DNA of 64,000 nt from Pimelobacter simplex (GTDB lineage: Bacteria > Cyanobacteriota > Cyanobacteriia > PCC-6307 > Cyanobiaceae). Location: the NCBI GenBank assembly GCA_943361795.1, contig CALRIS020000012.1, positions 21,077-85,076 on the forward strand, read 5' to 3'. The position numbers and the translations under genes were made by a program. The notes under the pieces are model-generated. The model worked only from the letters and a program-made list of their open reading frames with translations, made no database searches and was not told the DNA's origin. Of this stretch, positions 9,915-33,805 are shown piece after piece (position 1 is the first letter of the stretch; each line of letters starts with the position of its first letter).

Positions 9915-11372
9915 TCAACTCCTGAGCCACTCGGTTAGGCCGCCGGGTTGATCAATCAGTTCGATTCCCTGCTCGAGCAAGCTAACGCGAATGCGATCGG
10001 CTTCGCCATAGTTTTTTGCCCGCTTGGCTGCCTGGCGCTCTGCAATCTGCGCTGCAATCTCCCCATCGCTGGGCCCAGCACCGGCCGCCCCTGCAGGGTC
10101 TAATTCCACTTCCGGTTTGAGGCCGAGAACGCCAGCCAGTTCCAGCAACAGCCTGGCCTCGGCTTGCAGGGCCTGGGCCTCAATAGCGGCCTCGGCATCG
10201 CCCCGTTCGCTGCGGTTCGCTAGGGAGCGCAGGGGTTTGGCCAATTCGAACACCGCAGCCAGGGCCGCAGACGTGTTCAGGTCGTCGTCCATGGCCGCGC
10301 TGAACCGCAGACGCGTCTCCGCTAGGGCGGTCGCTAAATCCTGGGGCCGATCCCCTCCGGCTCCTGCTTGCAATTGACCCGCCAATTGCAAAGCCCCATT
10401 GAGGCCCTTCCAGCCGGTTGCCGCCGCAGCTAGGGCCTCGGGGGTGAAATCAAGCGGTTTGCGGTAGTGGGCCTGGAGCACAAACAGGCGCAGGGTCATC
10501 GCCGAGGTACCGCTCTCCAGCAGGGCGCGGATGGTGGTGAAGTTGCCCAGGGATTTGGACATCTTTTCGCCACCCACATTGACCATGCCGTTGTGCAGCC
10601 ACCAGCGGGCCAGGGGCTTGCCCGTGGCCGCCTCCGACTGGGCGATCTCGTTTTCGTGGTGGGGAAAGATCAGATCGGCGCCACCCAAATGGATATCGAT
10701 CGTGTCGCCCAATTCCTGGCGCACCATGGCCGAACATTCGATGTGCCATCCCGGTCGGCCGGGTCCCCAGGGGGAGGGAAAACTGGGCTCGCCCGGTTTG
10801 GCCCCTTTCCAGAGCGCGAAATCAAAGGGATGGTGCTTGCGGGCTTCCTCGCTGCCGGAGACCCGGCCGTCGGCATTCTGCTGTTGCTCCGAGAGATCCC
10901 GGCCCGAGAGTTTGCCATAGCCGGCGTGTTTCATCACGGCGAAATAGACATCGCCATCGGCGCCATAGGCCGCCCCCTTGGCTTGCAATTCGCCAATCAA
11001 GGCGCGGATCCCATCGAGGCTCTGGGTGGCCCGGGGCATGCGGTCGGCCGGCAGGATGTTGAGGGCAGCCATGTCGGCCACGAAGGCGTCGATGTTGCGC
11101 TCGCTCACGACCTCCATGGAGCTCCCTTCCTCGGCAGCCCGTTTGAGAATCTTGTCGTCGATGTCGGTGTAGTTCTGCACAAACATCACCTGGTAGCCGC
11201 TCCAGATCAGGTAGCGCCGCAACACATCCCAGGCGATGTAACTGCGGGCGTGGCCCAGGTGGCAGAGGTCATAAACCGTGACCCCGCAGCAATACATCGA
11301 CACCTGGCCGGGTTGCAGCGGCTCAAATGGTTCGCTGCGGCGGGTGAGGGAGTTGGTGAGCCGCAGGGTCAC
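9915..11372 (-). CDS. cysS: Cysteine--tRNA ligase
   Basis: HIGH-type [14 protein letters not shown] ([10 protein letters not shown]), and CCGVTVYD. The GTG at 11372 gives the canonical N-terminus (V)[14 protein letters not shown] 11423 and the listed 11597 would add unconserved extensions. Confidence 0.9.
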
Positions 11373-11421
11373 GGGCGTCAGGTCAAGGGCTAGGACGGCT
11401 GGACCGTAAGGCCCATCCCCC

Positions 11422-12870
11422 ATGGTCGCCCGCCGTGGCTCCCCACCCCTGCCTGGCGCGGCCAGCGGAGCCCCCGATGGGGATCGGCATGGGGATCGAA
11501 CCAGGGACCCGGAACAGCCCCCCCCTAGCCACGCCAAGCGGACGGACTCGGCGTTCTGGTGGCTGTGGGGCGGGCAGCTGGTTTCCAACCTCGGCACCCA
11601 GGTGAGCCTCTATGGCCTGGGGCTATGGCTCTTCCAGCTGCAGAACCACCTGCTGGATTTCGCCGCCGTGGCCATCGTTGTTCAGGTGGCCAAGATCCTG
11701 GCCCTGCCTGTGGTCGGACCCCGTTTACAGCAGTGGCGGCGGCGGCGCGTGATGGTGGTGGCCAATGGCCTGGGGGCCCTGGGCACCCTGGCGCTGGCGG
11801 CGCTGCTGCTGACGGCGGACCGGGGCCAGGGGGCCCCGGGACTGCTGGCCCTACTGCCCCTGCAGGGGCTGGCGGCCGCGGCCGAGGCCAGTTTGGTGCT
11901 TTGTTTTGCCAGCCTGATTCCCCTATTGGTGCCGGCGGGGGTGGCGCGCCACCGGGCCAATGGCCTGTTTGCCAGCAGCGATGGACTGGTATTGATTGCG
12001 GCGCCGTTTCTAGGGGCCTGGCTGGTGGGGATTGCCGGCCTGCGGGGCGTGCTGGTGCTCGATGGCCTGAGTTTTGGCCTGGCCATGGCCTGCGTGCTGC
12101 TGGCCCCCTGGCCCCAGGCAGCCCTGGGGCCGGCCTCGGCGCCAGGGCTGCAGGACAGGGGCCAGCCCGCAACGTCCTGGACCCAAGCGCCCAGCCGCTT
12201 TGGCCACGATTTGGCCGCCCTCTGGCGCGATGGGGCCCTACGGCGCCTGGCCCTGCTCGGCACGGCGATGGCCTTTGTCTACGGCGCCACCGAAGTGCTG
12301 TTCCCCGCCTGGGTGATCACGGCCCTTGGCCAGGAACGCCTCGGTGGCGCCCTGGTGGTGGGCGGCCTGGCCTACGGGTTGGGGCTGCGCGTTTGGCTGG
12401 CCCATTCCCCCAGGCTCTGGGGGCGGACCCTGGCCTGCTTGCTGGTGATCCAGAGCCTGGCCCTGATGGGGGCGGGGCTGGTGCTGTTTGAGGGCCTCAT
12501 CCCCTTCTGGTACGCAGGGCTGGGCTGCTTCACCCTGGCCTTGCCGATTTGTTTAGCGATCGTGCAAAGCCGTTGGCAACAGCTGGTGCCCGCGGCCGAA
12601 CTGCCGCGGCTCCTGGCGGTGCGTTACGCCCTGGAATGGCTGGCCCGGCTGGCGGCCTTCATTAGCAGCGCCCTGGTGGTCGATCAGCTGCTGGGGCCCG
12701 CCCTGGAATGGCCCCATTGGCCCGACTGGCTAGCCGCTGCCCTGGGAACGGGACCAGGGCGGCCCATGGCCGTGGCCCTCGGGGGCCTGGGCTGGGTGCT
12801 GCTGCTGGCCTTGGTCAGCCAATCGCTGCGGCCGCCGGGCCTGGGATCGCCAGGGCGGAACCAGGCTTAA
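11422..12870 (+). CDS. MFS transporter (EntS/MFS_3-like), about 12 TM; start uncertain
   Basis: Begins [27 protein letters not shown], followed by repeated hydrophobic helices. It lies divergent from cysS. The first roughly 45 codons are P/G/R-rich and may not be translated. Confidence 0.7.
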
Positions 12871-12938: not shown

Positions 12939-14105
12939 ATGCGGGTCCTGATCTTCACCTCCAGTGGCGGCACCGCCCACGACGCCGCCGCCGGGGCCCT
13001 GGGGGACTGGCTGCGCCAGTGGGATCCGGGCGGGGAGGTGGGGATCGAGCAGGTGCTGGAGAACGGCAGTGGCGCCTACCGGGGCGGGGTGGCTCTCTAC
13101 AACTGGATCCAACAGCACGCCCCCTGGCTCCATCAGGCCTACTGGTGCCTAATGGAGTTTGAGGATCTGATTAAACCTGGCACCGTCCTATTCGGCCGCC
13201 GTTACCTGGCCCAGCTGCTGCGCCGGTTCAGACCAGACCTGATCATTTCCACCCACCCCCACACCAACCGGGGCCACTTTGCTTTTGCCAAGCGCCTGCT
13301 GGGTCCCCAGCTGCGTTGCCTCACCTGCTGCACCGAACTTGCCGGCGGCTTTGGCTTCAGCCGCAACTGGATCAGCTCCAGCGCCGATGCCATCTGGGTC
13401 CAAACCGCCGAAGTTGCCGCCGAACTCAGGCGTCGGCACTATCCAGCCGAGCGCATCGCCCTGCTGGGTCCCCTCCTCTATCCCGCCTACCACCTGCCGG
13501 TGCCCGCAGGCCAGCGCCTTGAACCGGGCCCCTTCGCCCCAACTGCGGCCAGCGAAGCGGTGGACGATCCCGATGCCAACGATTCCCTACCCCTGTTGGT
13601 CTTGGGGGCCGGCGCCAATGGGGCCAATAACCATTGCCGCCTGCTGGAGACCCTGCGGCCCTTCGCCGGTCGCTTGACGGTGGTGGCCCTGACGGGACGG
13701 CGCCAGGCAGCGTTCGAGCAGGTGCAGGGATGGGCGGCGGCTCACCCGGAGCTGGCAGTCCAGGCCCTCGGCTACCAGGGGCCCGAGCAGATGGTGGCCC
13801 TCTATCGCAGGGCCTGGGCCATGGTGGCCCGGCCAGGGGCCCGCACCGCCACCGAAGCCTTACTCCTGGGCTGTCCGCTGGTCTTCAACACCTTTGGCAC
13901 GACCATGCCCCAGGAATGGTTGGCACGCCGCTATTTTCATAGGCGCGGCTTGGAACGATCCATTGACCGCCCAGAGCAGCTGGCTGCCCTTGTAGCAGCT
14001 TGGCTGAACCGGCCCGAGCGCTATGCCAACTGGCGCAATCTTTACCAGCAGCATCTTTTAACTTCCGATCTCCCATCCTTGGGGCGTCTAATCCTGGGAA
14101 GCTGA
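12939..14105 (+). CDS. Glycosyltransferase, MGDG-synthase/UgtP-like (GT28-type)
   Basis: MRVLIFTSSGGTAHDAAAGAL ... PDLIISTHP ... is the layout seen in UgtP/MGDG-synthase N-domains, followed by a GT-B C-domain. ATG 12939 is preferred because the listed 12708 start overlaps the MFS gene. Confidence 0.7.
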   Translation: MRVLIFTSSGGTAHDAAAGALGDWLRQWDPGGEVGIEQVLENGSGAYRGGVALYNWIQQHAPWLHQAYWCLMEFEDLIKPGTVLFGRRYLAQLLRRFRPDLIISTHPHTNRGHFAFAKRLLGPQLRCLTCCTELAGGFGFSRNWISSSADAIWVQTAEVAAELRRRHYPAERIALLGPLLYPAYHLPVPAGQRLEPGPFAPTAASEAVDDPDANDSLPLLVLGAGANGANNHCRLLETLRPFAGRLTVVALTGRRQAAFEQVQGWAAAHPELAVQALGYQGPEQMVALYRRAWAMVARPGARTATEALLLGCPLVFNTFGTTMPQEWLARRYFHRRGLERSIDRPEQLAALVAAWLNRPERYANWRNLYQQHLLTSDLPSLGRLILGS

Positions 14106-14208
14106 TGGCTATTTGGTAAGCTCATTGCGCTCTGAATGGCTTAAAGCTAGGCCCAACAAGCTCTTGCAGGTTTTTCAATTTAGCTAGAGACAGCCCCAAC
14201 CCGCCACG

Positions 14209-17200
14209 TTGCCTCCGCCGATCACCCCTTCATTGACCCTCTCGCCGACAGTCCCTAGCCCCGAACCCATCGCGATTGTGGGGATTGGTTGTCGGCTTCC
14301 CGGTGGCATTGGCTCGCCCCAGGCCTTTTGGGACTTGCTACGCGAAGGCCGTGATGGGATTACGGACGTTCCCGCCAGGCGCTGGGACCTGGGCCAGCAT
14401 TTCGACGCCGATCCGCTCAAGCCCCTCAGCCAGCACGTGAGACGTGGCGGCTTCATTGAGGGCATCGACCAGTTTGATGCGGGCTTCTTCGGCATCTCGC
14501 CGCGGGAAGCCCTTTGCATGGATCCCCAACAGCGCCTGCTGCTGGAGGTGGCCTGGCGCGCCCTCGAGCATGGCGGCCAACCCCTCGATCGCCTGCGCGG
14601 CCAAGCGGTGGGGGTCTTCATTGGCATCTCCAGCCTCGATTACAGCTCCCTGCTCTGGGCCTCCAGCGAGCACTACGCCACCCCCGATAACGAGCCGTTC
14701 GTGCTGCCGGGCAACACGGGCTGCATCGCCGCCAACCGGATCTCCTACTTCCTGGATCTGAAGGGCCCCAGCTTCACGGTTGACACGGCCTGCTCCTCTT
14801 CGCTGGTGGCGGTGCATCTGGCCTGTGAAAGCCTCTGGCGCGGCGAATCGACGGCGGCCCTGGCCGGTGGCGTGCAGGCCCTGATCCATCCGGGCATCCA
14901 GATGAGCTTCTGCAAGGCCGGGCTGCTGGCGCCCGATGGACGTTGCAAGAGTTTTGACGCCAGCGCCGATGGCTACGTGCGCTCGGAAGGGGCGGGCGTG
15001 GTGCTACTTAAGAGACTCTCGGAGGCCCGCCGCTGCGGCGATCCAATCGTGGCCCTGATCCATGGCACGGCCGTCAATTCCGACGGCCGCAGCAATGGCA
15101 TGGCCGCTCCCAACCTCAAGGCCCAAATCGCCTGCGTGCGCCAGGCCTTTGCCCGCTCCGGCCTGGACCCGGCCGCCACTCAGTACGTCGAAGCCCACGG
15201 CACGGGCACCCGCCAGGGGGATCCGATCGAACTGCGGGCCCTGGGCACCGTCCTGGGCGAGGGTCGACCAGGCGACCAGCCCTGCCGGGTGGGCTCGGTC
15301 AAAACAAACCTCGGCCATGGCGAAACCGCTGCCGGGATCACCGGCTTGATCAAGGCGGCCCTGTGCATCCAACATCGCCAGATTCCGGCCAGCCTGCATT
15401 TCCGCACGCCCAATCCGGCGATTGATTTCGCCGGGCTGAAACTCCAGGTGCAAACGGCCCTAGAGCCGTTCCCAGCTGCAGACCAGCCGGCGGTGGTGGG
15501 GGTGAGTTCCTTTGGCTTTGGTGGCACCAATGCCCATGCCGTGCTGGCCGAGGCGCCAGCGGCGGAAGTCGGGTCCCCAGGCGCTGCTCCCCTTCCCCTC
15601 CAACTCCTAACCCTGTCGGCCCGCACTAGCGTCGCCCTAAGGGCCACGGCTAGCCGCTACTTGGAGCTGCTGCGCCAACGGCCGACCCTGGCCCTGGCCG
15701 ATCTCTGCGCCAACGCCAACCAACAGCGCACCGCCTTCCAGCAACGCCTGGTCTGCCTAGCCAGCGATCGGGCCGATCTAGAAGGCCAGCTGGAGGCCTT
15801 TGCCGGAGGCAAGGCCCCGGCAAAGGCGAGCACCGGGGCGCCCCAAGCCGCCCATTCCCCCCTGCAGGCCGTGGCCGGGCGCCGGCCGGGCAAGGTGGCC
15901 TTCCTCATCAGCGGCCAAGGCAGCCAGGAGCGGGCCATGGCCCGGGACCTCTATGGCCGCCATCCGGTGTTCCGGGAGGCCTTTGAGCGGGCCGCAGCCC
16001 TGGCGGACCCGAGCCTGGAGCTGCCCCTGAAGCGGGTGCTGCTTCCAGAACCTGGCCAGGAGCAGCAGGCGGCCCAGGCCCTGCAGCACACCGCCATCGC
16101 CCAACCGGCCCTGTTTGTGGTGGGCTACGCCCTCAGCCAGCTCTGGGCCAGCTGGGGGGTGCGGCCGGACCTGCTGCTGGGCCATAGCGCCGGCGAAGTC
16201 TTGGCAGCCCACCTGGCCGGGGTGTTTGACCTGGCCGATGGGATCCGGCTGATCACGGCCCGGGGCCAGCTGATGCAGGCCCTGCCTGCTGATGGGGGCA
16301 TGGTCGCCCTCCTGGCGCCCCTGGAGCAGGTGCAAGCCCTGATCGCCTCCGATTCCAGCCTGGGAGTCGCGGCCCTCAACGCTCCACGAAACACGGTGGT
16401 GTCGGGTCCCGCTGGCGCCATTGGGGCCCTGGTGGAACGGGCCCAGGACTCTGGCGTTGGCACGGCGCGCCTGCCCGTGGCCCATGGCTTCCACAGCCCG
16501 GCCATGGCCCCGATGCTGGAGGCCTTTGCCCAGCTCCTGGCCCAACTGCGCCTATCCCCGCCCGCCCGGGCCCTGGTCAGCAGCCTCAGCGGTGGGCTGG
16601 CCGGGGCCGAGGTCGCCGATCCGGCCTATTGGTGTGAGCAGGTGCTACGCCCGGTGCGGTTCGCCCAGGGGGTGGCCACCCTCCAGGCCCAGGGGGCCCG
16701 CCTGTTTGTCGACCTGGGCCCCAGGCCCAGCCTGATTACCCTGGCGAAGCAAACCCTCGCCCCAGGCCCCGGCCCCGGCCAGCCAGGCAAGGACCCGGGC
16801 CAGCCAGTCCCAGGTCAACAAGCCCCAGGCCAGGAGCCCTTGTTCCTGCCCTCCCTGGTGCCCGCGCAGGACGACTGGAGCGTGATCCTGGCCAGCCTGG
16901 CCCAGCTGCATCTGCGCGGCCTGGCCATCGATTGGCGCTCCTTCCATGCCCCCTTTGCCCAGCAACGTCTGACCTTGCCGGGCTACCCCTTCGAGCGCCA
17001 ACGCCATTGGTGGCCAGCCGGTAGGGGCCAGGTCCCCGGCGCCCACCGCTGGCTCGACCATCTGGGCCTGGCCCCGCTGGATCCGCTCCCAGGGGAGCCA
17101 GTCTTTCCTGGGCCCAGCTCGCTTGCACCTGCCCAACCGGGAGCCAGCGCACCGATCCAAGCAGGGGTCCCCCGGGCTGGCCTTCAGGCCAGCAACAACG

Positions 17201-20200
17201 GCTTTGACGGCGGTCTCCAGCAAGCAACCCCAAGCCCGGCCCAAGCCGCTGGCGTCCCAGGCCCTGGAGCCGTTCCGGGCCCATCGCTGGCCCAAGGATT
17301 CGCTGCCAAGGAAGGGGATGGGTGGGATCGGGTGGGTCTTGCTCCCCCGGCCCAGGACTCCCATGGATCGGACGTCATTGAGTCGGGCGTCAATGGCTCG
17401 GGCCTCAATGGATCGGGCCACAACGAACTGGGACCCCAGGCAAGCAACGAAGCAACCCGTGCCACGGCGCCAGCCCGGATTCTCCAAAAGCTGGACCTAC
17501 CCCCAGGGCGGGTCCACTACCAGGTCACCCTGGACCCCAGCCAGCAGGCCGACCTGGCCGACCATGCCATCCGCGACCAACCGGTCTTTGCCGCGGCCGG
17601 TTTCCTGGTGCTGGCGGCCCAAGTAGCAACCCAGGAAGGGCTGGCCCTGGGCTTTGGTCCCCTCAGCCTGGAGCGCCCCCTCCGCCTGGGCGCGGGCCCC
17701 CGGCAGTTGCAACTGGTGCTGGAGGAAGGAGCGCTGGCCTTCCACAGCCGCAATCCCGGCGAACCGGCCGGCGGCTGGACTAGCCATGGCCGCCTGGGCC
17801 TGGTCCAGGCCCCTGGGCCGATCCCCCCTGGTGGTGCCGGACTGGACCCGGGGAGCGCCCCCTTCGTCCCAGGCCTGCCCCCAGACGGCGCCGAAACCCT
17901 GGACCCCACAGGCTTCTACGCAGCCCTAGCCCGCTGTGGCCTGACCTATGGCCCCCGCTTTCGGGGCCTCCACCAGGTGCAACGCCAGCAGGGCCAGGCC
18001 TGGGCTGAACTCAGGCGCCCCGCCGCTGGCGGCGCCGAAGGCCTGCTGGATAGCTGCTTCCAACTGGTGGCCGCCAGCCTGGATCCGGAGGCTGCTGGCG
18101 GACAACTCTTTTTACCTGTGGGCCTGGAGGCCCTGGCCCTCGCACCGGGGGAGTGGCCGGAGCGATTCAGCTGCGAGGTGCGGCTGCAGGCCAACCTGGA
18201 GCCGGCCCAGGTCCAGGCCGACCTGGTCTGGCATGCAGGCGGCCACCTGCTGGGTTGGATTCGGGGCTTCCGCCTGCGGCGCCTGCCGCGCCAGGCGGTG
18301 GACTGGATGTTCCCAGCAGCCCAGCTGGCCCCCCCTGAGCCCGCGCCCGATCCGGCCAGCTGGCTGATCCAAAGCGACTGGGAACCGCTGGGCTTGGATT
18401 CGGCCCCCACCGTTGCAGCCCACGAGTCGGCTGCAGCCCTACCCCCAACCCTGCCGCCCCCAACCCTGCCCCTCGGCGATCGGCCCCTGCTGATTGGCGC
18501 GGGCCAGCACCAGGCCCGCGCCTTTGCCGCCTGGGCCAGCGACCAGGGCCAACCGGCCAGGCGCCTTGGCTTTGGCGACCCCCTGCCCGCCGGCAACGGG
18601 CCGGTGCTGGTCTGGCCGGATCCGGACGCGGCCGAACCCCTGGCCCTGGCCAACCACCTGCTGGCCCTGGTCCAGCAGCTCCAGGCCCCCCGGAACGCCA
18701 ACAACGCACTTCCCAACCAGGCCGCTGGTTCTGGGGCCCCAGGCCGAGCGCAACCCCGGCCCCTATGGCTCGTGCTCGAGGGCGACGCAGCCTGGAGCGG
18801 GGTGCTGGCGGGCTTTGCCCAAACGGCCGCCCTGGAAACCCCCCAGCTGGCCTGGACCCAACTGCACCTCCCCGCCGACCCCCAGCACCAGCCCCAGGCC
18901 AGGGACTGGGACCAGCTCTGGGCCCAGGCAAGCAGCGAAGCGAGCCTGCTCTGGCGTTCGGGCCAAGCCCATGGCCAACGGCTGCAACGGCTGGCGCCTG
19001 AACGCTTCCGCTTTATTAGTAACGACCCCGGCCGCCTCGAAGCCCTGGTGCGCCAACCCCTGGCGCCAACCACCCTGGTGAATGGCGAGCTGGAGCTGGC
19101 CGTGGAGGCCACGGGCCTGAATTTCCGCGACGTGCTCAATGCCCTGGGCCTGCTGGCGGCCTACGGGGAGGAGCTGGGCCTGGCCGAGGGGGCCCAGGTG
19201 CCCTTTGGCGGCGAGTGCGTCGGCCGGGTGGTGGCGGTGGGACCCGGCGTGGATCCGGCCCTGGTCGGCCAGCGGATGCTGGCGGCCCTGGCCGTGGGCA
19301 GCCTGGCCAGCCATGTCAGCTGCCGCGCCGAGCTCTGCGTCCCCCTACCAACCGGGCTCGATAGCGAAACCGGCGCCAGCCTCAGCACGGTCTTCCTCAC
19401 GGCCCTCTACGGATTGGTGCACCTGGCCCAGCTCCAACCGGGGGAAACGGTGTTGATCCATGCGGGCGCCGGCGGCGTCGGCCAGGCGGCCCTGCAGGTG
19501 GCCCGCCGCTGCGGTGCCCGCATCCTGGCCACGGCCAGTGGGCCCAAACAACAGGGCCTGCTCGACCAGGGGGTGGAGGCCGTGTTCGACTCCCGAAGCC
19601 TGGCCTTTGCCGAGCAGGTGCGCTCCCACACCGCGGGCAAGGGCGTCGACGTGGTGCTCAACAGCCTCAAGGGGGACTGGGTTGATGCCAGCTTCCAGGC
19701 CCTTGCTCCAGGCGGCCGCTTCATCGAACTGGGCAAGATTGAGATCTGGAGCCGGGCCCAGGCCCAGGAGCGCCGCCCCGATGCGGCCTACCTGCCCTTC
19801 GACCTGCTGGAGGTGGCCGCCGCCGAACCCCAACGGGTGCGCCAGCTGCTCATCGACTTTTTGGCAGACCTCGCGCAGGGCAGTTTCAAGCCCATTCCCA
19901 TTGAGGTGTATCCCATCTCGGCCGTGCCGGACGCCTTCCGGCTCCTGGCCCAGGCCCGGCACCGGGGCAAGGTTGTGGTGCGCCAGGCGGATCGGCCCAC
20001 ACCCCTGGCGATTCGTCCCCAGGCCACTTACCTAATCACAGGTGCCCTGGGGGGCATTGGCCTGCGCCTGATCGACTGGCTAGTCGAGCGGGGGGCCAGC
20101 TCCCTGCTGCTGGTCAGCCGCTCGGCCGGGTCCCCGTCGCCTGAGGTCAAGCACCGGCTGGAAGGGCTCGAGGCGCGGGGCATCCGTTGCCAGCGGGTGG

Positions 20201-22527
20201 CCCTCGATCTGGCGGCCGGTCCAGAAGCCTTAGCGACCACCGTCCTGGCGGACGCGATCCGGGCCCTGCCCCCCGACCAGCCCCTGCGGGGCCTGTTCCA
20301 TGCCGCTGGCGTGCTTGAAGACGGCCTGGTGAGCGGCCTCACGCCGGAGCGGCTGGCGGCCGCCCTGGGACCCAAGTTGGCCGGCTGGCAAGGGGTACAG
20401 GCTGCCATTGCCCAGGCCCAGGCTTCACGTGAGCAAGCTTCTCTAGAGAAAGGTTCTCAAGAGAAAGGATCTCAAGAGCATGCTTCTCAGGAGCAAGCCT
20501 TACAAGGGGAAGCGACCCAAGGGCACGCTGATCAAACGGCGCCCTCGGCAGTCAAGGCTTGCAATCCATGCGATGGCCTGGACTTTTCGATCGCCTTTTC
20601 ATCGTTGGCTTCCCTGCTGGGATCGCCCGGCCAGGCCGCCTACGGGGCCGCCAATGGCGGCCTCGATGCCCTCTGCCGCCAGGGGTGCGCCGATGGACAC
20701 GCCCGTGATGGCAAGCCCCTGCGGCTGGCGATCCAATGGGGTCCCTGGGAGGGGGCGGGCATGGCTGAGGGCAAAACCAGGCGCCTAGAGGGACTGGGCG
20801 TAGGACTGCTGCCGGCAGCGGGGGCATTTCAAGCCCTGGACCTGCTTTTGGAACGGGGCCAAGGCGGTGTGGTCGCCGTACTCAACAACGATTGGCCGCG
20901 CCTGTGGGACCAGGCCAACCCCCGCCAGCGACCCGTGCTGGCCCCCCTGATTCAGGACGGCAGCGGCGGGACCAGGGCGGGGGAGCAAGCAGCGGCAGCG
21001 ACCCAAGCCGCGGCGGCCCGGGATGACCTGCTTGTCCGCCTGGCGGCGGCGGCCCCGGGCGAGGCGCTGGCCCTGGTCACCCGGCTGCTGCAGGGGCGCC
21101 TCGGCCAGGTGATGGGCCTGGCCGAGGCTGAGGCAATCGATGCGGGTGAATCCCTGTTCCAGCTCGGCCTCGATTCCCTGATGGCGGTGGAATTTGCCGC
21201 CGGGCTCCAGGCCGACCTGGGCCTCAAGGTGGACTTCGAAGCCCTCGGCGGCGACCCCAGCCTCGAGAACCTGGCCGAGCTGCTGCTGGCCGAGCTGCAA
21301 CCGGAGGGCCCAACCCCCTCCAAAACGGGCCTGGACCTGGGCGAGCAGGCCCGGCTCGATCCCGATTGGCGCAGGCCCGATCGCCAGCCCCTCCCGGGCG
21401 GATCCCTGGGGACCCCGGGTGAGGCGATCCTGCTCACCGGCAGCACCGGTTTTCTGGGGGCCTACCTGCTGGCCGGCCAGCTACAGCGCTGGCCCGAGCT
21501 GCGGGTGCGGGCCCTGGTGCGTTGCCCATCGGCGCTGGCGGGGCTGGATCGGATCCGCACCAACCTGGAGCGCTACGGGCTTTGGCAGCCCGATTGGGAG
21601 CAGCGCATAGAGGTGGTGCCAGGCGACCTGGCCCAGCCCCAGTTCGGCCTGGAGCCCCAGGCCTTTGCGGCCCTGGCCAAGGGCCTGGGCGGGATTCTCC
21701 ATAACGGCGCCCAACTGAGCCAAATGGCGAGCTACGGCCAACTGGCTCCCGCCAATGTGGGCGGCACCCGCGCCGTGTTGCGGCTCGCCAGCCTGGATAG
21801 GCCCCTGGCGGTGCAATTCATTTCGAGCGTGGCGGTGTTTGAGGCCCGGGCCTATCGCAACCGCCTGCTCCTGGAAAGCGATGACCTGGCGGACTGGCGG
21901 GGCATCCACCTGGGCTACTCCCAGACCAAGTGGGTGAGTGAGCGGTTGCTGCTGGCCGCCGGGGCGGCGGGCCTACCGGTGAGCATCTACCGGCCGCCCC
22001 TGATCGGCGGCCATTCCCGCAGCGGCGCCTGGCACCAGGACGACCTGCTGCAGCGGCTGCTGAAGGGATGCCTGGAGCTGGGCCTGGCCCCAGACCTGGC
22101 CTGGGAACTCGATCTGGTGCCCGTCGATTACGTGGCCGATGCGGTGACCGCCCTGGCCTGGCGTCCGGACGCCGTGGGCCTGGCCTATCACCTGCACCAC
22201 CCCGAACCCGTGATGCTGAAGGACCTGCTGGCCCAACTGGTCGAGGGCGGTGCGGCCCTTGAGCTGGTGCCGATGGAGCGTTGGCTGGCGGCGATCGAGG
22301 CCGATGCCAGCAACCCCCTGTACCCGCTGCGGGCCTTTTTCCACCAGCGCTGGGGCGATGACCAGCTCACCTATCCCGAGCTCAACCAACTGGGGCTGCG
22401 GGCCCGCCCCAGCGCCGCAGCCACCGTGGCGAGCCTGGCGGCCCTGGGGGTGCGCTGCCCAAGCTTCAAGGAGCTGATCGCCCCCTATGGGATGGCCCTA
22501 CTGGGCGCCGGCGCCGGCAGCCGATGA
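14209..22527 (+). CDS. Type I polyketide synthase, single fully reducing module with terminal thioester reductase (KS-AT-DH-ER-KR-ACP-R)
   Basis: All domain signatures are present (see domain features). TTG start 18 codons before the KS core. 2772 aa. Confidence 0.95.
14263..15552 (+). other. PKS ketosynthase domain (approximate bounds)
   Basis: [15 protein letters not shown], active-site DTACSSS (Cys codon 14791-14793), [30 protein letters not shown]. Confidence 0.9.
15895..16740 (+). other. PKS acyltransferase domain, malonyl-type by motif (approximate bounds)
   Basis: [15 protein letters not shown] (Ser codon 16186-16188), and VAHGFHS (HAFH-like, not YASH). Confidence 0.85.
17500..18310 (+). 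other. PKS dehydratase domain (approximate bounds)
   Basis: [17 protein letters not shown] (His codon 17563-17565; HxxxGxxxxP variant with D for G) and LLDSCFQL (DxxxQ). Confidence 0.7.
19020..19990 (+). other. PKS enoylreductase domain (approximate bounds)
   Basis: [35 protein letters not shown] motif, HRGKVVV. Confidence 0.8.
20027..20900 (+). other. PKS ketoreductase domain, interrupted by a repeat insertion (approximate bounds)
   Basis: [15 protein letters not shown] Rossmann motif, [24 protein letters not shown] (catalytic Tyr), and a repeat insertion at 20422-20526. Confidence 0.8.
20422..20526 (+). repeat. Seven in-frame 15-nt (pentapeptide) tandem repeats inside the KR domain
   Basis: [35 protein letters not shown]. 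Hand-counted G+C is 27/60 for 20437-20496, versus roughly two-thirds in the flanks. Confidence 0.85.
21040..21300 (+). other. PKS acyl carrier protein domain (approximate bounds)
   Basis: [14 protein letters not shown] (phosphopantetheinyl Ser codon 21175-21177). Confidence 0.85.
21420..22524 (+). other. PKS terminal thioester reductase (R, SDR-e1) domain (approximate bounds)
   Basis: [18 protein letters not shown](P)-binding motif and YSQTKWVSE (YxxxK). Confidence 0.85.
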
Positions 22528-23873
22528 CCCTGACGCCGCTAGCGGCGCCCCCATGGGGGCTAGTGATCACGGCCGGAGTGCCGATCCGCTTGCCCGCAGA
22601 TGGCGACCTGGCCTCCCCATGGGCGTTGGTCCTGGCCTTGGCCCTACTGCTCAGCTTAGCCGGGCAGGCCCTCCTCACCGGCTGGTTTGCACTTCGGGTC
22701 CGCCGGTTGGGGCAGCAGCGCAGCCGCTGGCCCGAGGAACCAGCCGGGGGCTGGCCGGTGGCGGAGGTGGTGCTCTGCCTGCGGGGCGCCGATCCCAGCC
22801 TGGCAGGGGCTTTGGCAGCCCTCGCCCACCAGCGCTACCCGGGCCCCTGGCGCCTGCAGCTGGTGGTGGATTCCCAGGCCGATCCGGCCTGGGCCGTGGC
22901 GGAAGCGAGCCTGGCAGCCCTGGAGGCCAGCGGCCAGGCCAGCTGGCAGGCGGCCCAGCAGGGGCCCCTGCTGGGCCGGCCCCAACGGGGCTCCCTCAAG
23001 GGCGCTTCCCTGCGCCAGGCCTTTGCCCACCTGCATCCCGCCACGACCCTGGTGGCCCTGATCGATGCCGATGCGATCGTCTCGCCCGATTGGCTGGCGG
23101 ACCTGGCCCGGGCCTGCAGCCAGCCCGGGGTCGGTGCCGTGTCGGGCAATCGCTGGTACCAGCCCCAGGCAGGCAGCCTGGCCGCTCAGGTCAGGGCCGG
23201 CTGGAATGGGGGCGCCCTGGTGCTGATGACCCTGCTCGGGATCCCTTGGGGGGGCTCCCTGGCGGTGCGGCGCCAGGTGATCGATGCCGGTGTCTGGAGT
23301 GAACGGCTGATCAGCAGCCTCTGTGAAGACACCTCCCTGGTCCAGCCCCTGCGCCAGCTGGGCTGGCGCTACGCCTTCCGGCCCGAACTGATCGCCCTTG
23401 ACCAGGACGACAGCATGGCCTTGTCCGATCTGGCCCCCTGGATCGGCCGGCAACTACTCACCGCCCGGCTGCACCATCCGGCCTGGCCCCTGGTTGCCCT
23501 CCATGGCGGCGGCAGCGCCCTCCTGCTCCTGGCTGCCGCCGCCTGGCTGTTGCTGGGCCATTCCGGCCTTCTTGCCGCAGCCCTCGCTCTCTACGAACTG
23601 GGCTGCATGGGGCTCTTGCTAGGGATCGAAGCCACGGCCCTCAGGGCCCTGGCCAAACCTGGGGACGAAGCCATACCCCGGCCGCTAGCGCCCCTGGGGC
23701 GCCGGGCTTGGCAGTGGCTGAAGCACCTGCCCGTGACCCAACTCATCTATGCGCTCGCCTTCTGGCATGCCTGCTGGGATCGCCGGGTGGAATGGCGTGG
23801 CGTCACCTACCGGGTGCTGGGCCACCGCGAGCCTGGGGGACCGGGGGTGGAAGCCCTGGGCTGGGAGGAATGA
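22524..23873 (+). CDS. Membrane glycosyltransferase family 2 (GT21/ceramide-glucosyltransferase-like layout)
   Basis: N-terminal TM segment, then VEVVLCLRGADPSL, LIDADAIVSPDW (DxD), GNRWY and CEDTSL. The ATG overlaps the PKS stop (ATGA at 22524-22527). Confidence 0.75.
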   Translation: MTLTPLAAPPWGLVITAGVPIRLPADGDLASPWALVLALALLLSLAGQALLTGWFALRVRRLGQQRSRWPEEPAGGWPVAEVVLCLRGADPSLAGALAALAHQRYPGPWRLQLVVDSQADPAWAVAEASLAALEASGQASWQAAQQGPLLGRPQRGSLKGASLRQAFAHLHPATTLVALIDADAIVSPDWLADLARACSQPGVGAVSGNRWYQPQAGSLAAQVRAGWNGGALVLMTLLGIPWGGSLAVRRQVIDAGVWSERLISSLCEDTSLVQPLRQLGWRYAFRPELIALDQDDSMALSDLAPWIGRQLLTARLHHPAWPLVALHGGGSALLLLAAAAWLLLGHSGLLAAALALYELGCMGLLLGIEATALRALAKPGDEAIPRPLAPLGRRAWQWLKHLPVTQLIYALAFWHACWDRRVEWRGVTYRVLGHREPGGPGVEALGWEE

Positions 23874-23882
23874 CTGAACTGC

Positions 23883-24569
23883 TCACCGGGCCAGCATCAG
23901 CCGCCTTAGCACCACCATGGACTGGCGCAGGTTGGCCTCATTGAGGTCGTCGTAGGTCGGGCGCAAAAAAGCGGGCAGGTCGGGCTCTAGGGCGATCTGA
24001 TGGTCGACAAGCACCCCGCCGCGCACCCGGGTCAAGCTCCATTGCCCCTGGAGGCTGAGGATGCGCTCGCCGCGGAGCAGGCGATAGCGCATCCAGCGGG
24101 GCGCCCTTTCCTCCACAGCCAGCACAACCTTGATCGGCAGACCGAAGGTGGACGGGGCTTGGTAGGTCTGGGCTAGCTCCAGCTGGCTGCCCTGGCGGTT
24201 GAGCACCTTCGCCTGCCTGATGTCGGGCATCAGGCCTGCCATCGCCTCGTAATTGGTCAGCACGGCCCAGGCCCGGGCCTGGGTCACGGGCACCAGCATC
24301 CTTGCCCTGTAGTGGCCCTTGCTGCCCGTCAGCACCGGATCGGCCAGCGCCGGTTGGACCGGCCGATCCGGGCCGCTGTCCTGGGCGAGGAGCTGGGCTG
24401 GGGTCGCCAGAGTTAGGCCCACCGCAGCGCCTAAGGTGAGAACCTGATTGAGCAACCCATGGCAGGGCCTAGCTGGCTGGCTGCCTAACGCCGATGAGCC
24501 CCCCATGACCTGGCATTTGCGGCGCATCAGGCCATTGTGATGGATTGGGAACCGGGACAAGATCCCCAA
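23883..24569 (-). CDS. Secreted or membrane-anchored SRPBCC (START / polyketide_cyc2-like) lipid-binding protein
   Basis: N-terminal hydrophobic signal-like segment LLNQVLTLGAAVGLTLATPAQLLAQ, then an SRPBCC-like core ARMLVPVTQARAWAVLTNYEAMAGLMPDI ... LQGQWSL. More likely starts are ATG 24527 or 24506. Confidence 0.6.
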   Translation of the reverse strand: MGILSRFPIHHNGLMRRKCQVMGGSSALGSQPARPCHGLLNQVLTLGAAVGLTLATPAQLLAQDSGPDRPVQPALADPVLTGSKGHYRARMLVPVTQARAWAVLTNYEAMAGLMPDIRQAKVLNRQGSQLELAQTYQAPSTFGLPIKVVLAVEERAPRWMRYRLLRGERILSLQGQWSLTRVRGGVLVDHQIALEPDLPAFLRPTYDDLNEANLRQSMVVLRRLMLAR

Positions 24570-25853
24570 AGCAAGGCACCTTTAAAAGCATCAACGGCAG
24601 CCGTTTCCCCTGCAGCCGTTTCAAGCCCCCATTCCACCCCTGTCGATCCTGCCACCGCCGTTGACTGGAGTGCTGGGGCCGCAGCGGGAGAGCCCCAATT
24701 TGATCTGAAGCGACGGCTCTACTTTTTAAGTGGTTTTGATCCCCGCGGCGCCTCTTTCTATTTCCGGCTCATGGGCCAGGAAGTGGAGCGCCAAAATGCC
24801 AAGTCACCCATGGGCGAAGGGACGCCCATCCAGCTGGTCAGACGCAGGCAGGAAGGGGATCGACTGGTGAGCCGGTGGCGGATTCAGCGATCCCAACCCA
24901 ATAGCTCTGGCCGTTCCAGCAGCCACGAAATTGGCTTTTTGCACTGGGATGACATTGCCCGCAGCCACTGGCCCAGGCGCTCCTTGGCCATGGTCGGTGA
25001 GATCGCCGAGGTCTACCGCTGGTACCTGCTGCAAGGGGGCTTGCTACGGATTGCCCGTCTCTGCCCCGGGGTGGCCCTCTGCGGCGCCTACCCAGCGCTT
25101 TTCACCGCCCTGGCGGTGGGAGTTGCCTTGCTGGCTGGCGCTGGCCTGGGAGCGCTGACCTACGGGGCCCTGCCAGGGCCCCTAGCCCTGGGAGCCGCAG
25201 TCTTGGTAGCCGCGAGCAGCACCTGGCTGCTGCTGCTCGCGGCGTGGGCCCTGGCCGATCGGCTCGGGGTGGTGTGGCTCTGGCGCTCGATCCGCTTTAC
25301 CCACCGGCTCGGTCAAGCCCGCGATGGCGACCTGCGCGCCCGGGTCCGGGAGTTGGCCCGGCGGATCCTGGACCTAGAAGCCGAAGCCCCGGCCGAGTCG
25401 GTGCTGCTAGTGGGCCACAGCTCAGGCTCCTTTGTGATGGCCATGCTGGCGGCCGAGCTGCGCCGCCAGGACCCTGCCGCTGCCATGACAAACCGCTTAA
25501 GCCTGCTCAGCTTGGGCCAGAACCTGGCCAACCTGGCCGTCTATCCCGGGGCCCAGGCATTCCACGCCGATTTGCAGGAGTTGGCCCGGGAGCCGCGCCT
25601 GCCCTGGCTCGATGTCACCAGCCACGATGACCTCCTCTGTTTCGCTGGCGTCGATCCCTACCGCAGCTGCGACGTTCCCGCCCCAGCGGGCCCGGCCTAC
25701 CCAGCCCTGCAGCTGGTGGCCCTGGCCGAGCCGAGGGGCTGGCTTGATCGACTGGCCCTGGCGTTTCAGCAGTTTGATCTCCACTTCCATTACCTGCGCC
25801 AGGCTCCTGCCAGCCACGGCTTTGATCCCCTCAGCCAGCTGCTGAAACCATGA
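24540..25853 (+). CDS. Unclassified membrane-anchored alpha/beta-hydrolase-like protein (GHSSG nucleophile elbow)
   Basis: RRLYFLSGFDPRG N-terminal strand, a hydrophobic hairpin of 2-3 helices (LCPGVALCGAYPALFTALAVGVALLAGAGLGAL ... STWLLLLAAWALA), then VLLVGHSSGSF, later SHDDLL and HFHY (Ser-Asp-His order). Start uncertain. Confidence 0.5.
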   Translation: MDWEPGQDPQSKAPLKASTAAVSPAAVSSPHSTPVDPATAVDWSAGAAAGEPQFDLKRRLYFLSGFDPRGASFYFRLMGQEVERQNAKSPMGEGTPIQLVRRRQEGDRLVSRWRIQRSQPNSSGRSSSHEIGFLHWDDIARSHWPRRSLAMVGEIAEVYRWYLLQGGLLRIARLCPGVALCGAYPALFTALAVGVALLAGAGLGALTYGALPGPLALGAAVLVAASSTWLLLLAAWALADRLGVVWLWRSIRFTHRLGQARDGDLRARVRELARRILDLEAEAPAESVLLVGHSSGSFVMAMLAAELRRQDPAAAMTNRLSLLSLGQNLANLAVYPGAQAFHADLQELAREPRLPWLDVTSHDDLLCFAGVDPYRSCDVPAPAGPAYPALQLVALAEPRGWLDRLALAFQQFDLHFHYLRQAPASHGFDPLSQLLKP

Positions 25854-27575: not shown

Positions 27576-28868
27576 TTGAACCTTAAGGTCAAAGTGCTAA
27601 TATCAATTAAGATTTGCCTAGCTCCACGAGTGGTTCATCCAGCCAAAGGGCCCTCCCCAGCCTTCAGGCCCGTTGCGGAGCGTTTTGGGATCGGCTGGCT
27701 CACGGCAGCCCTGCTGGTGGCCCCCCAGCTGGCACCGCTGGCAGCCCTGGCCGCTCCCCCTCCAGCTGCCGCCAAGCGTTCAACACTGGTGCCGCCGGCC
27801 CAGCGGGCAAGGGTGACCTACGACACCTACCTGCTGGGGCCCGGGGACAGCCTGCAAATTGAACTGGAGAACATCCCCGAGCTCTCTGGCACCTTCACAA
27901 TTGGGCCCGATGGCACCCTATACCTACCTCGCCTGCGAGCTCTCTTCGTCGATGGGCTAACCATTGAGGAGTTGCGCTATTTTCTTACGCAACAGTTCAA
28001 GCCATATATCAAGAATCCAGAAATCTACATTAGGCCACTTGCCTACCGTCCAGTAAGGGTTTACGTTGGCGGGGAGGTCAATCGTCCAGGCTATTACACT
28101 CTCTCACAAGACCAAGCAATTCAAGCACTCAGCGAATCAAATAACAAGCAATATCTATCAAGCTCAGTAAATATGAACAGTACAAGCATTGAGGCAAGTA
28201 GGTCAACATCCTACAGCCCTAGCGCCAACAATGCGGGAGCAACATTTAATCCCTATGTCGTTCCGACAGTCTACGATGCAATCCGCGCCTCCGAAGGGGT
28301 AACACCCTATTCCAATCTTTCGGACGTCTTCATTACCCGCAAACAACCCTTGAGTAGCGGCGGCGGCAAGGCCAGGGCAAGCGTGAATCTTTTGAGCATG
28401 ATCACCCATGGAGACGAGTCACAGAACGCAAGACTTTTCGACGGAGATATTCTTTATGTTAACAAAAGTCCAATTGTCCTACTAGATCAATTACTTGCAT
28501 CTGCACGTACGAACCTAAACCCTCAATACCTCAATGTGTTCATCACCGGCAGGGTTAAACTACCTGGCAACACCGTCCTCCCTCAGGGCTCATCGCTGAA
28601 CCAAGCTCTTACTAGCACCGGGGTTCAACTGCTCCGTGGCAAAGTAGAATTTGTACGCATTAATCGCGATGGCAAGCTAGATCGACGACTGTTTAACTTT
28701 AATCCAAGCCTACCAATCGATTCAGCCTCCAATCCAGTATTGATGAGCGGAGACATTATAAGGGTTCAAGATTCCGGCGTTTCCGCAGCAACCAGCCTAC
28801 TCAGTGAGCTAACCGGCCCATTTGTAGGTATTTACTCCGTCTACAGTCTCTTTGGAGGTATTAAATAA
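27576..28868 (+). CDS. Polysaccharide export protein, Wza/OPX-like (Poly_export + SLBB)
   Basis: YLLGPGDSLQIELENIPELSGTFTIGPDGTLYLPRLRALFVDGLTIEELR, later GRVKLPGNTVLPQGSSLNQAL (SLBB-like). TTG start is uncertain. Confidence 0.75.
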   Translation: MNLKVKVLISIKICLAPRVVHPAKGPSPAFRPVAERFGIGWLTAALLVAPQLAPLAALAAPPPAAAKRSTLVPPAQRARVTYDTYLLGPGDSLQIELENIPELSGTFTIGPDGTLYLPRLRALFVDGLTIEELRYFLTQQFKPYIKNPEIYIRPLAYRPVRVYVGGEVNRPGYYTLSQDQAIQALSESNNKQYLSSSVNMNSTSIEASRSTSYSPSANNAGATFNPYVVPTVYDAIRASEGVTPYSNLSDVFITRKQPLSSGGGKARASVNLLSMITHGDESQNARLFDGDILYVNKSPIVLLDQLLASARTNLNPQYLNVFITGRVKLPGNTVLPQGSSLNQALTSTGVQLLRGKVEFVRINRDGKLDRRLFNFNPSLPIDSASNPVLMSGDIIRVQDSGVSAATSLLSELTGPFVGIYSVYSLFGGIK

Positions 28869-33705: not shown

Positions 33706-33805
33706 CGCTCATGGAATGCCGTGGAAAGAAAAAACTTAAACATCAAACTCATTTTTTACCTAAGCGGAAAATCAACAACGGGCCATAGCAGCTAAACGGT
33801 TCATT

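Follow-up and report, generated by a model that had tools for sequence, protein, structure and literature searches.

A stand-alone fully reducing polyketide synthase with a fused terminal reductase in picocyanobacteria, and its candidate role in making an envelope glycolipid

How does a polyketide synthase (PKS) that carries a complete reducing loop and its own release domain obtain a starter when no loading module accompanies it, and what does it release? The question is raised by one gene in a 64,000-nucleotide stretch of picocyanobacterial DNA (positions 21,077 to 85,076 of contig CALRIS020000012.1, assembly GCA_943361795.1; hereafter the window), the product of which an earlier note, made from the letters of the DNA, took for an iterative enzyme primed by fatty acid synthase (FAS) and resembling mycocerosic acid synthase (MAS). 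The reading we favour, with moderate confidence, is that this protein is an acyl-ACP-primed, probably iterative, malonyl-extending PKS whose fatty alcohol is turned into an alkyl glycoside lipid for the cell envelope.

The domain content of the protein (Table 1) is as the note had it: Pfam and the thioester reductase model TIGR01746, which the C-terminal domain matches at 270 bits (cutoff 213) with its TGxxGxxG and YxxxK motifs kept, confirm a single KS-AT-DH-ER-KR-ACP-R polypeptide at 14209-22527, with a linker (aa 401-534) joining KS and AT. The catalytic signatures are likewise intact. They comprise DTACSSS (aa 192), EAHGTGT (328), NLGHGE (367) and GHSAGE (658), the DH motifs (His 1119, YGPRF and DSCFQ at 1281), an 11-residue motif at 1751, TGALGGIG (1944), a 12-residue motif at 2138, GLDSL (2320), TGSTGFLG (2410) and YSQTK (2570), and all are kept in the seven orthologues with which motif positions were compared. 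Two minor deviations were found, a DH motif of the form HxxxDxxxxA rather than HxxxGxxxxP, and an AT specificity motif that reads HGFH (HAFH in orthologues). HGFH and HAFH mark an AT as malonyl-specific, YASH-type motifs as methylmalonyl-specific. The ratio of nonsynonymous to synonymous substitution rates (dN/dS), computed for each domain against two orthologues, is 0.05-0.29 over the catalytic domains and 0.55-0.77 in the low-complexity stretches, a difference large enough to indicate that the enzyme is intact and in use. With E-values down to 3e-93 and purifying selection, the domain pattern is not due to chance; the possibility of a pseudogene or an inactive PKS was rejected because the motifs are intact and dN/dS is low.

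No loader is encoded in the protein or beside it, in agreement with the note. Pfam scans of 30 open reading frames (ORFs) neighbouring the PKS yielded no AMP-binding domain or carrier protein, the window contains one KS only, and the fatty acyl-AMP ligase (FAAL), ACP, CylC-like halogenase, phosphopantetheinyl transferase (PPTase) and Rieske protein of a sister cluster, described below, have no tblastn match in the 64 kb (all E > 0.01). Cluster loci were also collected by protein look-up and with a downstream membrane protein, here called UNK, as a probe, the latter giving about 30 species-level picocyanobacterial genomes; no FAAL, ACP or PPTase lies within 10 kb on either side in the approximately 30 loci of the window type. 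In a collection of 5.8 billion proteins, only about 11 protein clusters consist of FAAL orthologues (identity 55% or higher) as against about 60 for the R-terminated PKS, and none of the strains listed with the window-type cluster is named among the former.

In related genomes (L005/L031, L027, L032, L033 and L076; loci are numbered with L, proteins with P) the same Dxr-MFS-GT28 position is occupied by a variant of the cluster with two PKSs, which keeps the MFS-GT28...SRPBCC-UNK-P450 frame and lends weight to fatty-acyl priming as the note proposed it. It encodes a docking-KS-KR-ACP-R protein, a Rieske protein (an oxygenase) and a fully reducing KS-AT-DH-ER-KR-ACP sister PKS without R (P0085), the KS of which is 82% identical to that of the window. 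In L033 (12391-19283), a FAAL, an ACP, a CylC-like dimetal halogenase and an Sfp-type PPTase follow the P450, all intact. In L005/L031 (L005 19560-21120) the FAAL breaks off at 428 aa, where the final 113 aa of CylC are fused to it, and in L032 (12390-15780) it is reduced to 227 aa; the PKSs stay intact in these loci where the cassette decays. The presence of a KS 82% identical to that of the window beside a FAAL-ACP cassette suggests that this KS lineage uses fatty acyl-ACP primers, and the persistence of PKSs next to truncated cassettes suggests that the dedicated loader is being lost. Both routes have precedent, as the fatty acyl starters of cyanobacterial metabolites are delivered by FAAL/ACP in some cases and come straight from primary metabolism and FAS in others (reviewed in PMC10114076). 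A 2021 survey reported no CylC homologues in picocyanobacterial genomes (PMC8406957), to which the CylC-carrying metagenome-assembled genomes (MAGs) of the two-PKS variant appear to be exceptions.

No starter-loading or docking element precedes the KS in the window PKS or any orthologue either, and the orthologues all start 4-20 residues ahead of the first KS strand, IAIVG. The note had named TTG 14209 and TTG 14233 as the sole in-frame starts ahead of the KS core, and they are, as an in-frame TAG (14185-14187) closes the frame upstream and no other ATG, GTG or TTG codon precedes the strand; GTG 14278 is also in frame and was rejected since it sits within the conserved IAIVG. Both TTG codons are invariant in 7/7 genomes of the window's clade, where the surrounding codons vary with the frame kept. 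In sister Cyanobium clades the PKS begins with an ATG 4 codons ahead of IAIVG (MPEP...), in Prochlorococcus MIT1307 with one 6 codons ahead, and the window has AGC in place of that ATG. The TTG start is thus a conserved trait of this clade, acquired after the ancestral ATG was lost, and of the two codons TTG 14209 is the better candidate. The spacer of about 100 bp that separates it from the preceding gene (14106-14208) shows good conservation in a comparison of three genomes (CTTGCAG...TCAAT, for instance), and either an internal promoter or a signal for translation from the TTG may lie in it. Rfam has no match to it, its predicted fold is not significant (z = +1.1) and it lacks a sigma-70-like promoter; terminator-like sites are at chance level.

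The orthologous family also shows how loosely the enzyme depends on its own AT, which occurs in three states: intact in the window, point-inactivated in P0013 and deleted in Prochlorococcus. In eight Prochlorococcus loci (L003, L021, L022, L024, L025, L028, L030 and L078; 10 protein clusters) the AT core has been cleanly removed with both the KS-AT and the post-AT linkers retained. In P0013 (L013), the KS, ER and R of which are 84-94% identical to those of the window PKS, the AT reads GHGAGE, GEASQ and HGSP, and the GQGSQ and HAFH motifs are lost. Because the rest of the protein is conserved in both the deleted and the inactivated forms, the cis AT is evidently dispensable, and FabD, the malonyl transacylase of FAS, probably serves in trans where it has gone. 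The window PKS itself does not belong to the trans-AT class, as its AT is intact and under purifying selection (dN/dS 0.22-0.25); the family is a natural transition from cis-AT to AT-less enzymes.

Whether the module acts more than once is a harder question. Among solved structures, the full-length protein matches the CurL KS-AT best (787 bits) and M. tuberculosis MAS second (753 bits). A KS-only phmmer search of the PDB, a bit-score ranking rather than a phylogeny and as such unable to separate iterative from modular enzymes, placed CurL first (476 bits), followed by PikAI (451), DEBS module 1 (444), Pks13 (437), MAS (389), trans-AT KSs (~360), LovB (307) and FAS (280). By this ranking the KS is an ordinary member of the cis-AT type, with no particular likeness to MAS. 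The note had proposed grouping of the KS with modular enzymes as a test of its reading; the ranking speaks against membership in the MAS group and leaves iteration undecided.

MAS and its relatives (Pks2, Pks5 and PpsC types) share with the window PKS the single polypeptide, the order KS-AT-DH-psiKR-ER-KR-ACP and the predicted use of long fatty-acyl primers, on which MAS acts iteratively. The NCBIfam Pks2 model scores 887 bits on the window PKS, which is below its cutoff. The note's description of a MAS-like module stands for the domain order and falls short elsewhere: the KS matches MAS less well than it does CurL, the AT is of the malonyl rather than the methylmalonyl type, and no FadD28-type FAAL is adjacent. 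Furthermore, the window PKS has a fused R and a product predicted to be unbranched, whereas the MAS chain is released by a separate acyltransferase. With CurL, which supplies the closest solved KS-AT didomain, it also shares the CurL-like_PKS_C linker, but CurL is one module in a long line with docking partners and the window PKS stands alone, equipped both for full reduction and for release of its chain. An organizational parallel is offered by WcbR (Burkholderia), RkpA (Sinorhizobium) and SwfA (sponge symbionts), mono-modular KS-AT-DH-ER-KR-ACP enzymes without a loader that are thought to be iterative (PMC3908369). SwfB provides R and a sulfotransferase to SwfA in trans, whereas the window R is fused in cis; the window cluster differs from those of WcbR and RkpA in having two lipid glycosyltransferases (GTs) and no AONS-like partner (WcbT/RkpG). 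Enzymes of this kind belong to surface-polysaccharide or lipid loci, and the Wza and Wzz genes that adjoin the window cluster may point to a similar setting.

The nature of the released product is suggested by the R domain and by the gene that follows it. The best solved match of R is the MxaA R domain (4u7w, 233 bits), a four-electron, NADPH-dependent reductase that converts the thioester to a primary alcohol. With MxaA-R and the TIGR01746 reductases the window R shares the NADPH and YxxxK motifs and reductive chain release; it is fused to a stand-alone fully reducing module, whereas the R of MxaA ends the multimodular myxalamid line, a hybrid of PKS and non-ribosomal peptide synthetase. Several JGI annotations of the PKS orthologues read 'myxalamid-type polyketide synthase MxaB'. 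The TGA stop codon of the PKS overlaps the ATG of a lipid-type GT gene (ATGA), an overlap that is also present in Prochlorococcus. Of the note's proposed product, a saturated long-chain aldehyde or alcohol, the saturated chain and its reductive release remain the most economical reading; the setting in a conserved cluster with lipid-type GTs and export genes, a context missing from the note, makes an alcohol that is then glycosylated far likelier than a free aldehyde.

The pathway that we envisage would begin with direct priming of the KS by a fatty acyl thioester, most likely an acyl-ACP of the housekeeping FAS. Extension would use malonyl units, for the loading of which the cis AT and a trans-acting FabD would be interchangeable, as AT loss in the orthologues suggests, and KR, DH and ER would reduce the chain fully in every round, several rounds being probable. 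The MxaA-type R would then use NADPH to reduce the ACP-bound saturated chain first to the aldehyde and on to a primary fatty alcohol, if its nearest relatives and its context are a guide. This alcohol would be glycosylated by the translationally coupled GT21/HpnI-like transferase, the GT28-like transferase probably adding a second sugar to give an alkyl (di)glycoside, and the P450 and the lipase-like membrane protein UNK may tailor the lipid. The MFS transporter and the adjacent Wza, Wzz and outer-membrane genes are candidates for export of the lipid to the cell surface, either by itself or as the base of a polysaccharide.

Along with the mono-modular enzymes above, the closest known counterpart in logic is the heterocyst glycolipid pathway, in which a very-long-chain acyl product of a PKS passes to a thioester reductase and the resulting fatty alcohol is glycosylated at C1 and exported to the envelope (PMC11804610, PMC7360850). 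The predicted sequence of events for the window cluster is the same as that for HglE/G/D/C/A, HglB and HglT of the Nostocales, but the machinery differs. The Hgl synthase is a multi-subunit enzyme resembling polyunsaturated fatty acid synthases, with a chain-length factor and a separate ACP-thioester reductase, whereas the window has one cis-AT module with a fused R; the PfaA model reaches 384 bits on the window PKS against a cutoff of 1010, and the KS of the window has no second KS beside it in the 64 kb, which places the PKS outside the Hgl type. Hydroxyl groups arise from skipped dehydration in Hgl and would require the P450 here, and the hosts of the window cluster are unicellular non-diazotrophs.

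Four other explanations have to be set against this one, and the most substantial of them concerns the number of extensions. The enzyme could be non-iterative, adding one malonyl to a C16 or C18 acyl-ACP and reducing it fully to give a C18 or C20 alcohol, with a logic like that of a single-extension olefin synthase. The nearest KSs (CurL, PikAI and DEBS module 1) are indeed non-iterative modular ones, and the sister fully reducing PKS passes its chain to the KS-KR-ACP-R module via docking-like tails, which is assembly-line behaviour. Yet a single reducing extension duplicates what FAS already does, making it hard to rationalise an 8-kb gene held under strong selection in a 2-Mb Prochlorococcus genome, and the other mono-modular KS-AT-DH-ER-KR-ACP enzymes, MAS as well as SwfA, WcbR and RkpA (PMC3908369), are regarded as iterative; we consider the single-pass scheme unlikely, if a serious contender. 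Rather less probable is a self-primed synthase that builds the whole chain de novo in the manner of FAS, from decarboxylated malonyl-ACP or AT-loaded acetyl and with no contribution from the housekeeping FAS. It would account for the missing loader, its domain order is that of animal FAS, and FabD could supply AT-less orthologues with malonyl only. The FAAL-ACP cassette accompanying the 82%-identical sister KS points instead to acyl-ACP primers, the KS retains its Cys and is not a KSQ-type decarboxylase, and among the solved KSs that were matched, that of FAS scores lowest (280 bits).

The absence of a loader might also be only apparent, if another part of the genome encodes a FAAL/ACP pair dedicated to this PKS, perhaps together with a halogenase. 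The intact cassette of the related L033 gives this idea some substance, as does the restriction of the inspected DNA to 64 kb of the genome, but the empty flanks of the window-type loci, the decay of the cassette in L005/L031 and L032 with the PKSs intact, and the roughly fivefold rarity of FAAL orthologues relative to the PKS, with none named from window-type strains, leave us regarding it as quite improbable. We give least credence of all to a two-electron R whose aldehyde feeds alkane formation by aldehyde-deformylating oxygenase (Ado), transamination or oxidation in place of glycosylation. Many R domains do stop at the aldehyde, and picocyanobacteria possess the Aar/Ado alkane pathway (PMC10114076), but genes for an aminotransferase, Ado or an aldehyde dehydrogenase are missing from the conserved cluster, the R of MxaA, nearest among solved structures, is a four-electron domain, and the ATGA-coupled lipid-type GT that follows needs a hydroxyl acceptor.

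Acyl-ACP priming, repeated extension and a glycosylated alcohol therefore remain our preferred account, and several observations weigh against it. Its iterative character is something we infer, for a KS whose likeness to modular, single-use KSs exceeds that to MAS or FAS. The choice between alcohol and aldehyde is not readable from the R sequence. The search for a loader spans 64 kb of the window's genome, in the remainder of which a FAAL/ACP pair could still lie. The matches of both GTs to curated families (PRK13609 and HpnI) fall below the cutoffs, those of UNK to class-3 lipases and PLA1 by Foldseek are weak (E ~4e-3, TM 0.15-0.2), and no such lipid has been reported from picocyanobacteria in the literature searched.

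It is tempting to speculate further, if with considerable reserve, that the cluster makes an undescribed class of envelope lipid, a P450-hydroxylated very-long-chain alkyl (di)glycoside primed from FAS acyl-ACP without a loader, which may anchor or prime a Wza/Wzz-exported polysaccharide as the cyanobacterial counterpart of the wcb/rkp capsule lipid; to this tentative proposal belong also the passage from cis-AT to AT-less synthases and the idea that UNK and P450 constitute a new and widely distributed lipid-tailoring module shared with proteobacterial capsule loci. Such a lipid would be functionally convergent with the heterocyst glycolipids. Few phototrophs of lakes and oceans are as abundant as Cyanobium, Synechococcus and Prochlorococcus, whose small genomes have very few PKS genes. 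When such genomes retain an 8-kb synthase under strong purifying selection, and with it two lipid GTs, a P450 and genes for export, a so far undescribed lipid of the cell surface is implied. It could bear on resistance to grazing and phage, on surface properties and on sediment biomarkers (long-chain alcohols, diols and glycolipids). The series of intact, point-inactivated and deleted ATs, combined with the loss of FAAL-ACP, may offer insight into how a type I PKS comes to be fed by primary fatty acid metabolism, and a compact enzyme running from KS to R is of interest for fatty-alcohol production.

The genes around the PKS are listed in Table 1. The order MFS, GT28, PKS, GT2, SRPBCC (on the opposite strand), UNK and P450 is kept from Cyanobium to Prochlorococcus in about 30 species-level genomes, the carriers including freshwater 'Synechococcus sp. 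UW140' MAGs (the closest), Cyanobium usitatum, Cyanobium T1B-Tous and FACHB-13342, Synechococcus 8F6, Prochlorococcus MIT1307 and several single-cell genomes. The GT28-like gene always lies directly upstream of the PKS; its product scores 56 bits with the NCBIfam model PRK13609 (diglucosyl diacylglycerol synthase), and that of the GT2/GT21 gene 66 bits with HpnI, each below cutoff. The genes for Wza, Wzz and the 689-aa outer-membrane protein adjoin the cluster in nearly all loci, in either orientation. In Pfam scans the cluster showed neither a sulfotransferase gene nor one of the aminotransferase fold. We found no description of the cluster or its product in the searchable literature. The cluster family CF-20 of Calteau et al. 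2014 was considered and rejected, as the supplementary table of that work gives CF-20 clusters of only ~3 kb; that table also lists an orphan 6.5-kb PKS of Synechococcus CC9311, possibly a relative without an AT.

Table 1. Features of the PKS gene, its domains and the surrounding genes, in window coordinates
Feature	Position	Strand	Basis
NTRC-type thioredoxin reductase + thioredoxin fusion	2745-4139	-	
MFS transporter (DHA3/Mef-like), first cluster gene	11422-12870	+	Pfam MFS_1; NCBIfam 2A0121 H+ antiporter; syntenic in L001, L003, L004, L005
GT28-like lipid glycosyltransferase (MGDG-synthase / diglucosyl-DAG-synthase type)	12939-14105	+	Pfam MGDG_synth, Glyco_trans_4_4
Type I PKS, 2772 aa, KS-AT-DH-psiKR-ER-KR-ACP-R	14209-22527	+	Pfam, motifs, dN/dS; TTG start
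KS domain, aa 19-450, Cys192/His330/His370 triad	14263-15558	+	Pfam 3e-93 (aa 19-398); dN/dS 0.05-0.07
AT domain, aa 565-904, GHSAGE + HGFH, malonyl-type	15901-16920	+	Pfam (aa 565-904), motifs; dN/dS 0.22-0.25
G/A/P-rich linker, aa 936-1094, from 10-residue post-AT motif to DH	17014-17490	+	TRF, dN/dS
DH domain, aa 1095-1364	17491-18300	+	Pfam PKS_DH_N, PS-DH (aa 1095-1364); dN/dS 0.21-0.27
ER domain, aa 1626-1924, 16-residue site	19084-19980	+	Pfam ADH_N, ADH_zinc_N, ADH_zinc_N_2 (aa 1626-1924); dN/dS 0.13-0.20
KR catalytic domain, aa 1939-2200, Q/E/S-rich insertion of ~50 aa	20023-20808	+	Pfam KR in two stretches (from aa 1939)
ACP, aa 2294-2359, GLDSL phosphopantetheine site	21088-21285	+	Pfam PP-binding (aa 2294-2359)
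Terminal thioester reductase (R), aa 2407-2772, TGSTGFLG + YSQTK	21427-22524	+	TIGR01746; Pfam NAD_binding_4 (aa 2409-2646); dN/dS 0.18-0.29
GT2/GT21 lipid glycosyltransferase (ceramide-glucosyltransferase / HpnI-like)	22524-23873	+	Pfam Glyco_transf_21; ATGA overlap with PKS
SRPBCC / polyketide_cyc2 lipid-binding protein	23883-24569	-	Pfam; position and strand the same in all cluster loci
UNK membrane protein, putative divergent alpha/beta-hydrolase (GHSSG) split by transmembrane helical hairpin	24537-25853	+	AF2 model, motifs
Cytochrome P450, 559 aa	25850-27529	+	Pfam p450 3e-60; ATGA-coupled to UNK
Wza-like exporter	27576-28868	+	Pfam Poly_export/SLBB
Wzz-like protein, low GC	28869-30590	+	Pfam Wzz/GNVR; GC 0.51
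Predicted outer-membrane protein, 689 aa	30583-32652	+	Synteny

UNK, a protein of 438 aa encoded by a gene ATGA-coupled to that for the P450, belongs to no Pfam or NCBIfam family and has no significant sequence match in the PDB (best E 0.12); the first ~50 aa of its ORF are probably not real. The motifs SGFDPRGA, FLHWDD and GHSSGSF are invariant, and an AlphaFold model (pLDDT 75.6, pTM 0.77) has an alpha/beta-hydrolase core split by a long membrane hairpin of helices. The nearest solved structures of the P450 are 7wzl, CYP97A3, CYP46A1 and CYP4B1. For both proteins a role in lipid tailoring is a guess. They also occur as a two-gene module, the pair being kept in 41 non-cyanobacterial loci, in about 46 non-cyanobacterial species genomes (loci L038-L086), almost all without a PKS, in Beta- and Gammaproteobacteria, Verrucomicrobiota and Aquificaceae (Cupriavidus, Pandoraea, Sphaerotilus, Vogesella, Leucothrix, Cocleimonas, Akkermansiaceae and Aquificaceae). 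KpsS/KpsC-type capsule genes lie near 16 of these loci, and in L073 the capsule-lipid locus around UNK, of the wcb/rkp type, also encodes KpsS, an SDR, a sulfatase-like protein, an AONS-like enzyme and a PKS with the domains KS-AT-DH-ER-KR-ACP; the KS of that PKS is only 50% identical to that of the window, which argues against specific orthology. Capsule genes near UNK homologues, together with the Wza and Wzz genes adjacent here, suggest a link to surface polysaccharide, although they do not prove one.

The earlier note had also drawn attention to long low-complexity linkers, and the P/G/A/Q-rich stretch that it placed at roughly 165 aa between the post-AT linker and the DH is present, at 159 aa after the post-AT motif (aa 924, nt 16978; G 17, A 16, P 14, S 8 and Q 7%). 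It includes a 13-residue low-complexity run and a period-15 tandem repeat at 17363-17418, detected with TRF. From the post-AT motif to the DH His the window PKS has 195 aa, as against 74-86 aa in compact orthologues, and the linker has a dN/dS of 0.55-0.59 with 43-73 gapped positions relative to the two orthologues. A period-21 repeat (16762-16811, TRF) encodes a 10-residue insertion in the AT region; the PGQPGK stretch, which lies after the AT core, likewise coincides with an in-frame tandem repeat of period 21 or 15. In the KR, the spacing from FHAAG to GSPGQ is 108 aa compared with 57-58 aa in compact orthologues, and a period-15 repeat lies at 20431-20497. These stretches vary in length even among close relatives, with dozens of indels. 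Being length-variable, derived from repeats and nearly neutral, they are best seen as slippage expansions ordinary for the lineage; a functional role was rejected on the same grounds, and the linkers are not the noteworthy feature that the note made of them.

The window as a whole is plainly cyanobacterial in its housekeeping genes, which include Dxr, CysRS, IspG and an NTRC-type fusion (Pfam). Fusions of this type are typical of cyanobacteria and plastids, and the gene fits a cyanobacterial origin of the window. An Rfam scan of the 64 kb returned zero matches. GC content around the PKS locus is 0.64-0.71, and overlong program-made ORFs, as seen for the GT28 gene and cysS, are typical of such high-GC DNA. 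That of the GT28 gene starts at 12708 (465 aa, compared with 372-388 aa in homologues), and the true start, judged by the length of those homologues, is probably M78 at 12939; that of cysS (9915-11597) encodes 560 aa as against 484-485 aa in orthologues, so that the true start probably lies downstream.

The Wzz-like gene departs from its flanks in composition (GC 0.51 compared with ~0.66). Its product is 89-93% identical to Wzz of L012/L034 and ~60% identical to that of L008/L001, the PKSs of which are as close or closer, a pattern suggesting that recombination has replaced alleles among the export genes of the locus. Just beyond the Wzz region, in low-GC DNA at 32803-34708, are two ORFs of 300 aa, one matching an AraC-type helix-turn-helix domain and the other without a Pfam match. 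Finally, a 42%-identical PKS of the same KS-AT-DH-ER-KR-ACP-R architecture (P0058) is encoded in Synechococcus sp. BSF8S (CP154799; L006, 10001-18806), where it stands alone among insertion sequence elements and toxin-antitoxin genes with a sulfotransferase gene after it; by analogy with SwfA/SwfB, this pair would give an alkyl sulfate, not a glycolipid.

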